NCBI RefSeq assembly: GCF_053078305.1
Contig: NZ_CP166879.1
Length of the DNA: 64,000 nt
Reading direction: 5' to 3' (one strand)
The notes under the pieces were generated by a model, which was given only the letters and a program-made list of their open reading frames with translations, had not been told where the DNA came from and did no database searches. Positions 7,857 to 8,875 of this stretch are shown piece by piece (position 1 is the first letter of the stretch; every line of letters begins with the position of its first letter). A program made the position numbers and the translations under genes.

Positions 7857-8201
7857 TCACTCTCCTTCTATGCGAATACCAGCAACAGTCAGTGCGGCAT
7901 TGACCTCATCAGCGTAGTAGTACGTTAATCCACTTGATGATTTAGCCAGCTTGAATGGTTCTGGTAACTTCACTATGCGGGACTCCTGCTCGTCGATACG
8001 CTGTTTTGCTTCCTCCAGTTCATCCAGCAAATCAGCGATAATATCCACTTCACGATGACGGATTTCACACTTAAACGCAGCCAAAGCTGCATCACAATCC
8101 TGCTCAGCGTTTGGACTGTCTGGTTTCTCCTGATACCACGCCAGCATCGACCGATAGTTTTGTGCTGCCTCACGCAATGCCTGATAGTCAATCTTGCTCA
8201 C
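7857..8201 (-). CDS. Ead/Ea22-like protein (short paralog)
   Basis: 114-aa ORF; N-terminus (IDYQALREAAQNY) paralogous to the adjacent 225-aa protein (INYQTLREIAKLA). Confidence 0.4.
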   Translation of the reverse strand: MSKIDYQALREAAQNYRSMLAWYQEKPDSPNAEQDCDAALAAFKCEIRHREVDIIADLLDELEEAKQRIDEQESRIVKLPEPFKLAKSSSGLTYYYADEVNAALTVAGIRIEGE

Positions 8202-8875
8202 TGGTTGCCTCCTTTGCGAAGCTGGGCAGCAAAGTCAACTAACCACTCAGTCATTTCAACCTTCCCTATCAGGTCTGAACCAGGGTGCATACAGCAATCA
8301 CTCTGCGCCGCTTTGAAATCCTTATACTCATATTCTTGGGCCACCAGATTTTTTGCAGCTTCTATAGCAGCATCCACCCCCAGCGCCCGCACTTCAGACA
8401 GGAAAGCATCGGTGGCTGGCATATTTCCTGTTGCCTTCATGGCCTCCAAAATAACCAGAACGCCATCTCTCCCAACCTCCTCGCAGATAACCTCGGTGTT
8501 GTCGCCAACAACATCGCAGAATGCCTGAACTGCTTTACGAGCAAGTGCATTCTCCGCCGCCAGCGCCACAAGATTAGCTTCCAGCTCGGCAATACGTTTG
8601 CTTTGGGCTTCCCGTTCATCCAGCAGTGCCTGTACTACTTCAGGGTTGAAAGCTGCAATAAATTCTGCGTTGTTCTCTGCATTTTTCTGGTCATCAAAGC
8701 CAGGCCATTTGATAATGTCTCCGCAACGTTCATCCCCCGGCGTATGCACCGCATATGTATCAGTGCCCGGCGAAATGAATGCGACCCATTCGCCCTGGGT
8801 TGCCAGTTTTGCTATCTCACGTAGCGTCTGATAATTAATTTTTCTCACTGGTTGCCTCCTGGAAAATAACCGCAT
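8198..8875 (-). CDS. Ead/Ea22-like protein
   Basis: 225-aa ORF with central coiled-coil-like segment. Confidence 0.5.
   Translation of the reverse strand: MRLFSRRQPVRKINYQTLREIAKLATQGEWVAFISPGTDTYAVHTPGDERCGDIIKWPGFDDQKNAENNAEFIAAFNPEVVQALLDEREAQSKRIAELEANLVALAAENALARKAVQAFCDVVGDNTEVICEEVGRDGVLVILEAMKATGNMPATDAFLSEVRALGVDAAIEAAKNLVAQEYEYKDFKAAQSDCCMHPGSDLIGKVEMTEWLVDFAAQLRKGGNQ

Follow-up and report, generated by a model that had tools for sequence, protein, structure and literature searches.

The window analysed here, a stretch of 64,000 nt from one strand of contig NZ_CP166879.1 (assembly GCF_053078305.1), contains a lambdoid, RecE-encoding E. coli prophage with a pair of Ead/Ea22-like genes at positions 7857-8875. 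On the minus strand the gene order is P, DUF1627, HTH, DUF4406, Ea22-A, Ea22-B, orf122, DUF551, hok and, farther downstream, Q, as judged from Pfam searches on the neighbours in the window and from the RefSeq annotation of prophages with about 96-99% identity. The pair lies between the replication gene P (10246-10908) and the antiterminator gene Q (3721-4416), both assigned by Pfam, head-to-tail on the strand of the delayed-early rightward (pR) operon and in a nin-type region. The preliminary description of this DNA had placed the two genes in the variable ea region; this placement was not borne out, and the pair does not share the exo-xis (early-left) location expected of Ea22 proteins. In the pL arm of the same prophage (14.6-19.7 kb; Ash/Rha, RecE-like and integrase genes), no Ea22 gene was found among the ORFs checked.

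The module is a chain of overlapping genes, in which every start overlaps or abuts the preceding stop and every Shine-Dalgarno (SD) sequence lies inside the preceding coding sequence. The upstream neighbour of Ea22-A, the DUF4406 gene (8835..9140, minus strand; PF14359, 125 bits; phrog_355), encodes by family a nucleoside 2-deoxyribosyltransferase-like protein and runs 14 nt into Ea22-A, past the start of the latter. Downstream of Ea22-B, the coupled gene orf122 (7487..7855, minus strand; phrog_5117, E=7e-26) shares an ATGA overlap with the DUF551 gene (7137..7490, minus strand; PF04448, 56.7 bits); phrog_60 covers the Ea22 N-terminus, orf122 and DUF551. A simple scan detected no strong minus-strand terminator-like site from about 12.5 kb to 6.2 kb, which weakly suggests that these genes may form a single transcription unit; in the scan for promoter and terminator consensus sequences, counts were no higher than in shuffled sequences. 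An Rfam scan found no RNA elements inside 7857-8875. The long plus-strand ORFs at 8055-8528 and 8285-8824 were discarded as antisense artefacts, the family matches being all on the minus strand, and an anti-phage defence role was also rejected (no match in PADLOC-DB at E<=0.1 for Ea22-A, Ea22-B, orf122 or DUF4406). NCBIfam profiles gave nothing meaningful for the pair.

Both ORFs are present as first described: one of 225 aa at 8198..8875 and one of 114 aa at 7857..8201, each on the minus strand. The longest form of Ea22-A reads from the ATG at 8875; a start at GTG 8848, giving a protein of 216 aa (8198..8848, minus strand), appears more likely from the sequence, since AGGAGG is located 6 nt upstream of this GTG, the identical 17-mer AGGAGGCAACCAGTGAG also precedes ORF B, and this is the residue from which the family alignment starts, as does the Pfam model. 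The 216-aa form is also the one in the RefSeq annotation of a near-identical prophage (L001), and both versions are found in public databases. Ea22-A consists of the N-terminal Ea22 segment, a beta-rich insert of about 30 residues, a long helix and an 'Eae-like' C-terminal half, and ends in LRKGGNQ. PF13935 (Ead_Ea22) matched residues 12-130 of the 225-aa form with 93.3 bits, the match to phrog_368 had E=3e-65, and the sequence is 100% identical to a database protein (P0001) named 'ead/Ea22-like family protein'. The C-terminal half (residues about 95-216) is 92-100% identical to E. coli 'eae-like domain protein' entries that have no PF13935, and the EaE/EaD region of phage Gally matches residues 104-216 with 60% identity. 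This half was counted as P22 Eae-like by sequence similarity to proteins named Eae or EaE; no curated profile in Pfam or NCBIfam matched it, and neither collection has an Eae model. The AlphaFold2 model (alignment of 31 sequences) was poor overall (pLDDT 59), with a helix at residues 69-114 at a pLDDT of about 66-81. Foldseek against BFVD returned nothing at E<=0.001, the best match being another Ead/Ea22-like protein (E=0.018), and a sequence search against PDB chains gave only a chance-level match (E=0.7).

Ea22-B (7857..8201, minus strand) encodes 114 aa from a GTG start that overlaps the stop of Ea22-A (GTGA). PF13935 matched its residues 2-73 with 33.7 bits (cut-off 27). Its N-terminal 14 residues are 71% identical (10/14) to those of lambda Ea22, and the C-terminal tails are also similar (AGIRIEGE in Ea22-B and AGIRIKGE in lambda). 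The two proteins are bridged by the mosaic protein P0131, which consists of the N-terminal 63 residues of Ea22-B fused to the lambda coiled coil (E=1e-41 to Ea22-B and E=2e-37 to lambda Ea22). The N-terminal part of Ea22-B also resembles 'EaA' proteins of Salmonella phages. The AlphaFold2 model (alignment of 28 sequences) is of moderate quality, with a pLDDT of 75 that applies to the helical part only, and has helices at residues 6-25, 32-47 and 51-73, the last at a pLDDT of about 85; this helix is much shorter than that of lambda Ea22, and Ea22-B has no counterpart of about 46 residues of the coiled coil. Foldseek found no match to Ea22-B in the PDB at E<=0.001.

The small size raises the alternative that Ea22-B is a pseudogene in decay, truncated from a longer Ea22 gene: it is the shortest among its relatives, many proteins that share its first 60-70 residues at 75-92% identity run to 170-200 aa, and the long lambda-type coiled-coil block of P0131 and P0135 is missing from it. 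However, the same 114-aa form is intact in two protein clusters (P0121, 87 members, and P0123, 224 members) and at three independent loci in prophages, the short architecture is shared by relatives of 125-129 aa, and the C-terminal 57 residues are kept at 54-70% identity in Klebsiella and Acinetobacter phage proteins. Ea22-B further retains the family N-terminus, the AGIRIEGE tail and the SD-stop-ATG junction to the next gene. We therefore regard decay of a longer gene as very unlikely, and treat Ea22-B as a short form of the family.

The assignment of both genes as Ead/Ea22-like, made initially from the sequence alone, proved to be right. Both proteins pass the gathering threshold of PF13935 (InterPro IPR025153; 27 bits), share four PHROGs (250, 368, 1667 and 1138), and have identical or near-identical proteins named 'ead/Ea22-like family protein' in the source databases, in agreement with the names in NCBI and in the RefSeq annotation of L001. 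In each, the N-terminal family segment M-[SR]-K-I-[ND]-Y-Q-x-L-R-E precedes a long predicted helix, and the conserved N-terminal segment of Ea22 proteins (MS-x-I-[ND]-x-Q-A-L-R-E-A-A) was found as MRKINYQTLREIAK in Ea22-A, MSKIDYQALREAAQ in Ea22-B and MSEINSQALREAAE in lambda. The common motif noted earlier (INYQTLREIAKLA and IDYQALREAAQNY, near the two N-termini) was confirmed as a block of 15 residues, and the similarity between the proteins was significant by three methods: BLASTP (E=0.001, 26% identity over 114 columns), Smith-Waterman (a score of 64, not attained by any of 2000 shuffles, which gave 31.4 +/- 5.1; z=6.35) and hhalign profile-profile alignment (first 15 residues, probability 97%, E=6.7e-11). 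The C-terminal parts are unrelated to each other.

It could be argued that the common motif is only a conserved DNA element, an initiation or recombination junction, and does not reflect protein homology. The strictly identical portion is indeed the 17-nt SD/start element, which is read by upstream genes in two frames, and the profile-profile match covers just 15 residues. On the other hand, the PF13935 threshold is passed by both proteins over 72-119 residues, and the Smith-Waterman score is driven by a second similar block where the helical region begins (NAE..AAF..LLDE.E..RI.E.E). In addition, among 104 distinct sequences, codons 2-15 vary at the third position about twice as much as at the first and second (entropy 0.90, against 0.50 at position 1 and 0.43 at position 2), as in the Leu9 codon, which is CTA in Ea22-A and TTG in Ea22-B. 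This third-position variability indicates probable selection on the N-terminal peptide, and a DNA-only origin of the motif is highly improbable in our estimation. The pN/pS values between the window and its closest relatives were 0.3-0.9, resting on only 2-18 differences per comparison, which falls short of proof of purifying selection.

Lambda Ea22 (NP_040612, 182 aa; C-terminal domain structure PDB 8DSX) belongs to the same Pfam family as Ea22-A and Ea22-B, and Ea22-B shares with it the MS-x-I-[ND]-x-QALREAA segment (10/14 identical) and the AGIRI(K/E)GE tail; the DNA of the two 3' ends is nearly alike (ATTCGCAT.(A/G)AAGGAGAGTGAGAT). In contrast, the lambda C-terminal domain (8DSX) is unrelated to the C-terminus of either protein, and lambda has a single copy, which belongs to the pL operon and its exo-xis region, whereas Ea22-A and Ea22-B belong to the pR operon, between P and Q. 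The stop of lambda ea22 is also not followed by a coupled gene (ATC in place of ATG). Ea22-A is similar to proteins of the Salmonella phages BTP1 and P6, with 57-60% identity between its N-terminal 75-85 residues and their Ead/Ea22-like proteins; in P22-type phages (Lederbergvirus and related phages), however, segments of the Ead and Eae types are combined differently or form separate proteins. Ea22-A has a P22-Eae-like C-terminal half and a beta-rich insert, and Ea22-B is a minimal lambda-Ea22-like form. Ea22 genes have been described as mosaics in which interchangeable C-terminal domains are joined to a common N-terminus and coiled coil, with variants V1-V3 in Stx phages; also described are an additional N-terminal segment that lambda lacks and an Ea22 variant that contains DUF551 (PMC10834534).

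The SD sequence and GTG start of both genes are contained in the same 17-mer, AGGAGGCAACCAGTGAG. The first copy (8844..8860, minus strand) lies within the DUF4406 gene, at its 3' end, and is translated there as QEATSE; the second (8197..8213, minus strand) lies in the 3' end of Ea22-A, where another frame gives KGGNQ followed by the stop codon. The window contains exactly these two matches, even at up to 3 mismatches (0.09 expected by chance), and the same 17-mer is found in at least 120 IMG/VR contigs. The genes upstream of it end in RKGGNQ or in EATSE[QKR][DN], i.e., in two reading frames, and this points to conservation that probably acts at the DNA level. In a survey of 135 junctions, which was biased in that the loci were chosen by the exact 17-mer, 98 were located ahead of an Ea22-type start and 37 ahead of other genes, and 9 of the 135 were Ea22-Ea22 tandems. 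The 17-mer is the first part of a 5' direct repeat that comprises the junction and the first 15 codons of each gene (8800..8860 for Ea22-A and 8153..8213 for Ea22-B, both on the minus strand); 43 of 61 nt are identical between the copies, including all of the first 17.

How the two genes came to be adjacent was examined against related loci. Alignments A2 and A3 showed one N-terminus combined with several C-terminal blocks that are unrelated to one another, and one C-terminus attached to N-termini that are likewise unrelated, so that the pair has the variable, exchangeable C-terminal domain of a mosaic gene seen in Ea22 proteins. One near-identical prophage (L002) has Ea22-B and no Ea22-A, in a structure that fits the loss of the segment between the two direct repeat copies. 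Two further near-identical prophages (L001 and L125) have an additional, unrelated 109-aa gene between Ea22-A and Ea22-B, and this gene ends in QEATSEQD across the same 17-mer. The breakpoints of the polymorphism fall at the common 17-nt SD/start junction. As only three loci were compared, the presence or absence of Ea22-A is compatible with both an insertion of this gene and a deletion in L002.

The preliminary description had interpreted the pair as the result of duplication and divergence. If a single ancestral Ea22 gene had been duplicated in tandem at this site, and the copies had then diverged and changed in length, this would account for the adjacency, the same orientation and the common family domain, and also for the same 17-mer and the similar first 15 codons. 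However, the two proteins are only about 26% identical and hhalign aligned no more than 15 residues; each has far closer relatives elsewhere, and neither was among the best 120 database matches of the other, which suggests that their N-terminal regions are not sisters in the family. The C-terminal half of Ea22-A is near-identical to proteins without the Ea22 domain, close prophages have Ea22-B alone or an unrelated gene interposed, and the 17-mer also precedes non-Ea22 genes (37 of the 135 junctions). A local duplication is accordingly very unlikely, and this part of the earlier interpretation was not upheld. The low identity, the closer relatives elsewhere, the mosaic C-terminus and the breakpoints at the junction together suggest that the pair was assembled as cassettes by recombination, and the adjacency is most likely due to cassette shuffling at conserved ribosome-binding-site junctions. 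The sites of exchange would be the 17-nt SD-plus-GTG element with the first 45 or so nucleotides of coding sequence, and, where Ea22-B ends, the SD-stop-ATG element.

A tandem Ea22 pair also occurs in the Stx2 phage P13374 (NC_018846). As in the window, P13374 has two genes, ORF15 (ending in RKGGNQ) and ORF14 (ending in IRIKGE), both annotated in RefSeq as ead/Ea22-like and with the 17-mer between them, followed by a small ORF13 and then ORF12. The differences are that the Ea22 proteins of P13374 are only 29-33% identical to those of the window, that its module is in the early-left region and not between P and Q, and that ORF12 is a fusion of orf122 and DUF551 (298 aa), which are two separate genes in the window. 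By BLASTP, orf122 matched residues 1-123 of ORF12 with 60% identity (E=2e-42), and the DUF551 protein matched residues 217-297 (E=2e-15). Matches to Ea22-A and Ea22-B abut in Stx1a phage records (e.g., LC744187), and a match to Ea22-B alone was present in 48 Stx2a and 9 Stx1a phage records.

At the 3' end of Ea22-B, a third junction, GAAGGAGAGTGAGATG (7853..7868, minus strand), combines the Glu-Gly-Glu codons and the stop with the SD sequence of orf122, whose ATG begins 1 nt past the stop. A C-terminal K/R-G-E tripeptide has been described for the studied Ea22 proteins (PMC7093339); Ea22-B ends in IRIEGE, with E for K/R, and Ea22-A ends in KGGNQ without the tripeptide, and both tails overlap the SD sequence of the next gene. 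In the fetched loci, 60 of 112 Ea22-like ORFs end in [KEG]GE. The downstream contexts examined covered 43 of the 60, and in all but two an ATG lies 0-2 nt past the stop, mostly as TGA(G/T)ATG; the two exceptions are lambda, with the relic AAAGGAGAGTGAGATC, and one locus with a GTG start. In nearly every locus examined, the K/R-G-E tail of Ea22 coincides with the SD-stop-ATG junction of the gene that follows. We rejected the SD sequence alone as a complete explanation of the tripeptide, as the motif persists in lambda and L129, where no downstream gene is coupled to it, and the SD sequence does not include the conserved AGIRI.

Ea22 of lambda and Stx phages is an oligomeric coiled-coil accessory protein that favours lysogeny; the coiled coil mediates oligomerisation, and the protein is a tetramer in solution (PMC7093339, PMC10834534). 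The pro-lysogenic phenotype was reported from deletion or overexpression experiments (PMC7093339). By analogy with the family, we assume a coiled-coil, oligomeric architecture for Ea22-A and Ea22-B, in which each would oligomerise through its N-terminal segment and coiled coil and present its own C-terminal module to a host or phage partner. The effect may be a bias of the lysis-lysogeny decision or of host survival after induction; a pro-lysogenic role is extrapolated here from Ea22 of lambda and Stx phages, which is encoded in a different operon. Taken together, we consider it quite probable that Ea22-A and Ea22-B are two distinct members of the Ead/Ea22 family, whose proteins are non-essential early accessory proteins of lambdoid phages, paired by cassette exchange and with a putative function like that of lambda Ea22.

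A more speculative extension, to which we give little credence, is that Ea22-A and Ea22-B co-assemble, by way of the N-terminal segment and coiled coil that they share, into hetero-oligomers showing two different C-terminal modules. The recurrent tandems in the window, in P13374-type Stx phages and at 9 of the 135 junctions would then serve as a combinatorial adaptor, and the SD/start and SD-stop-ATG junctions as portable linkers for swaps of modules, by RecET/Red-type short-homology recombination, between the pL and pR accessory regions. If this were true, the K/R-G-E tail would be largely a footprint of the ribosome-binding site of the downstream gene.

The family, the protein names and the tandem Ea22 pairs of Stx phages are already known, and the finding is real but ordinary. 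The locus is an instance of the mosaic-boundary ('linker') model of lambdoid phage evolution, reportedly put forward by Susskind and Botstein in 1978 and by Juhala et al. in 2000 and Clark et al. in 2001, and involves no new mechanism. As in this model, exchange would have occurred at gene boundaries, with short junction sequences common to otherwise unrelated neighbours; the difference is that the junction here is defined to the nucleotide, as a 17-nt SD-plus-start element read upstream in two frames. The locus would provide a clean, nucleotide-resolved case of cassette shuffling at ribosome-binding-site junctions. For annotation, the 216-aa GTG start of Ea22-A is better supported than the 225-aa ATG form given in some database entries. 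Ea22 function matters for the induction of Stx prophages, and the presence of two divergent copies in the pR operon of some prophages may be relevant there.

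Two adjacent minus-strand genes had been described as tandem Ead/Ea22-like paralogs with a common N-terminal motif. The head-to-tail ORFs, A (8198..8875, 225 aa when read from its first ATG) and B directly downstream (7857..8201, 114 aa, GTG start), lie exactly as described, and the quoted peptides INYQTLREIAKLA (225-aa ORF) and IDYQALREAAQNY (114-aa ORF) were present. Both proteins exceeded the curated Pfam threshold (27 bits) for PF13935 Ead_Ea22 (A, 93.3 bits; B, 33.7 bits), in agreement with the family assignment, and several PHROG families of unknown function are common to both. 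Pairwise alignment of A with B gave 26% identity (BLASTP, E = 0.001) and a Smith-Waterman score of 64, above all 2000 shuffles (31.4 ± 5.1; 0/2000 as high), and a profile-profile comparison between the A and B families aligned the first 15 residues with a probability of 97%. Judged from the sequences, the resemblance is modest but real.

The start of A is likely to lie further downstream. The 17-mer AGGAGGCAACCAGTGAG, a Shine-Dalgarno and GTG start junction, has exactly two matches in the 64-kb window (minus strand, 8844-8860 and 8197-8213; 0.09 matches expected by chance with three mismatches allowed), both with a strong Shine-Dalgarno AGGAGG, a 6-nt spacer and GTG. The GTG of the 8197-8213 copy is the start of B, and that of the 8844-8860 copy gives M-R-K-I-N-Y-Q... 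in A, which aligns with M-S-K-I-D-Y-Q... of B. The GTG of A also coincides with the beginnings of the family alignment and the Pfam model, and the RefSeq annotation of a near-identical prophage has the 216-aa form. Database entries disagree over 8849-8875 (minus strand), 216-aa (GTG) and 225-aa (ATG) versions both being present; the real gene A is likely 8198-8848 (minus strand), encoding 216 aa from GTG. The original annotation of ORF14 in Stx2 phage P13374 has the same over-extended start as the 225-aa form (MGGTASQRRQPVSKIDYQ...).

The genomic context was derived from Pfam matches of the window's own ORFs and from RefSeq annotation of prophages 96-99% identical here. The minus-strand order is Cro-side regulators, YdaT, DUF1376/DnaT (O-like), P, DUF1627, an HTH protein, DUF4406, A and B, followed by orf122, DUF551, hok/sok, a BOF protein, DUF968, RusA, the Q antiterminator, a DNA methylase and tRNAs; a short leftward arm with Ash/Rha, a RecE-like exonuclease and integrase lies on the plus strand (14.6-19.7 kb). 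Because of this gene order, the pair is assigned to the nin-type region, from P to Q, in the early-right operon of a lambdoid prophage, and not to the ea region proposed in the preliminary description, lambda ea22 belonging to the exo-xis/ea region. The DUF4406 gene overlaps A by 14 nt, A overlaps B by GTGA, the stop of B is followed by one base and the ATG of orf122, and orf122 overlaps the DUF551 gene by ATGA. A simple scan found no strong terminator-like site on the minus strand inside this chain (counts not above chance).

Several other elements were located in the window. Directly downstream of the DUF551 gene are the Hok/Gef ORF (6691-6903, minus) of a hok/sok toxin-antitoxin locus and sok RNA (6841-7015, minus; 117.7 bits); a BOF/YgiW-type OB-fold gene (6225-6569, minus) and a terminator-like hairpin (6209-6187, minus) come next. 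The sRNA STnc100 occurs twice on the minus strand (1-203, truncated at the window edge, and 483-689), and downstream of Q and the DNA methylase lies a tRNA-Met/tRNA-Arg/tRNA-Arg cluster (1811-2062, minus). Stx phages typically have this layout ahead of their stx genes; here, however, the ORF at 790-1725 resembles a methyltransferase, and no stx gene was seen. A HigB-type toxin (13419-13766, minus), with its HTH antitoxin partner (13057-13416, minus), adjoins the prophage immunity region. The Ash/Rha gene (14667-15518, plus) contains, in its 5' part, matches to isrK (14718-14794, plus) and C4 antisense RNA (14819-14906, plus), an antirepressor control element of the P1/P7 type, here carried by a lambdoid prophage. 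The plus-strand stretch 15995-19739 holds a RecE-like protein of 812 aa with Exonuclease VIII and Rv2179c-like 3'-5' exoribonuclease domains, and the tyrosine integrase (18720-19739, plus) marks the prophage end; the host chromosome beyond contains a PyrD leader (46804-46877).

The origin suggested for the pair, local duplication and divergence, was not supported. A and B are only about 26% identical, and each has closer relatives elsewhere (60-96% identity); A is absent from the 120 best matches of B, and B from the 120 best of A. Cassette content also varies among close prophages: DUF4406 leads directly to B without A in one near-identical locus (L002), and an unrelated 109-aa gene separates A from B in two others (L001 and L125). 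BLASTN placed the cassette breakpoints in the junction. The 17-mer and the first ~45 coding nt form a 61-nt direct repeat flanking cassette A in the window (copies 43/61 identical, the first 17 nt being identical), and L002 has the structure expected if the segment between the copies was lost.

The 109-aa gene of L001 ends across the 17-mer as ..FKQEATSEQD, DUF4406 likewise as ..FQEATSEKN, and A reads it in another frame (..RKGGNQ). The exact 17-mer occurred in at least 120 viral contigs in an IMG/VR scan; among the matches listed, the junction leads into an Ea22-type start in 98 of 135 cases and into another gene in 37, only 9/135 junctions have an Ea22-type gene on both sides, and the upstream genes end in ..RKGGNQ or ..EATSE[QKR][DN], in two reading frames. 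Since these genes read it in two frames, the 17-mer seems conserved as DNA. The N-terminal peptide appears to be under selection as protein, because the third position of codons 2-15 has about twice the variability of the first and second and the Leu9 codon is CTA in A and TTG in B. In the classical view of lambdoid mosaicism, reportedly set out by Susskind and Botstein in 1978, Juhala et al. in 2000 and Clark et al. in 2001 (among the references of PMC3029335), exchange takes place at gene boundaries via short sequences common to both partners. Short-homology recombination would be a plausible route, as the same prophage encodes a RecE-like exonuclease. Cassette shuffling at conserved junctions, not local duplication, most likely made A and B neighbors.

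A is a mosaic protein. It opens with the Ea22 N-terminal segment (residues 1-15), followed by a beta-rich insert absent from lambda Ea22 (residues ~16-55) and a long predicted helix (residues 69-114). From residue ~95 to 216 it has 92-100% identity to E. coli 'eae-like domain protein' entries, which have different N-termini and no PF13935 match, and the EaE/EaD region of phage Gally is 60% identical to residues 104-216. Stx-phage Ea22 proteins have an extra N-terminal segment missing in lambda (PMC7093339, PMC10834534). B is a minimal Ea22, with 71% identity to lambda Ea22 in the first 14 residues and AGIRIEGE as the last 8, against AGIRIKGE in lambda. In a mosaic database protein, the first 63 residues of B, nearly unchanged, are joined to the lambda coiled coil (E = 1e-41 to B, 2e-37 to lambda Ea22), and proteins of Klebsiella and Acinetobacter phages are 54-70% identical to the C-terminal 57 residues of B. 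B is not an obvious remnant, because its 114-aa form is intact in large sequence clusters and three independent loci.

Ea22 proteins end in K/R-G-E, the significance of which has been called unknown (PMC7093339). In the fetched loci, 60/112 Ea22-type ORFs end in [KEG]GE, and all but two of the downstream contexts listed, which cover 43 of these 60 ORFs, have ..AAAGGAGAGTGA(G/T)ATG.. or a close variant, the ATG being 0-2 nt past the stop; the tail codons would thus be the Shine-Dalgarno of the downstream gene. The window version is GAAGGAGAGTGAGATG (7868-7853, minus). In locus L127 (2005-2030), the protein extends past KGE and the downstream ATG is still 7 nt after GGAG. This explanation is strong but not complete, because lambda (L003 1040-1075) has a relic ..AAAGGAGAGTGAGATC without a coupled gene, locus L129 (1845-1875) keeps the tail as a relic with no called downstream gene, and the AGIRI residues ahead of the tail are conserved too.

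Comparison with ea22 loci of related phages revealed a tandem Ea22-like pair in P13374, from E. coli O104:H4, with the module order of the window but in the early-left region. ORF15, which joins an Ea22 N-terminus to an Eae-like C-terminus, ends in ..RKGGNQ and is followed by the 17-mer, the Ea22 gene ORF14 (ending ..IRIKGE), a small ORF and ORF12, in which orf122 is fused to DUF551; RefSeq names both ORF15 and ORF14 ead/Ea22-like family protein. Dozens of records of Stx2a and Stx1a phages contain a B-like match, which is abutted by an A-like match in the Stx1a records. Mosaicism of ea22, with a common N-terminus and coiled coil and interchangeable C-terminal domains, has been reported, and a DUF551-bearing variant is on record (PMC10834534). 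ORF12 is a single 298-aa protein (L004 2988-3884), whereas orf122 and DUF551 are two separate genes in the window (7137-7855, minus); phrog_60 spans the Ea22 N-terminus, orf122 and DUF551, and therefore gene fusion and fission take place in this module. Two divergent Ead/Ea22-family genes adjoining in a lambdoid E. coli prophage are a real but ordinary feature, and public databases already name A and B as members of this family.

No known defence-system model was matched, and the structural route gave no further lead for A or B. Beyond the observed family membership, gene architecture, overlapping chain and polymorphic cassette structure, a role can be proposed by analogy with lambda and Stx-phage Ea22. 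Lambda Ea22 is a tetramer with a dimeric C-terminal domain (PMC10834534). By this analogy, A and B may each oligomerise via the N-terminal segment and coiled coil, each would display its own C-terminal module to a putative partner, and they may favour lysogeny or host survival (PMC7093339).
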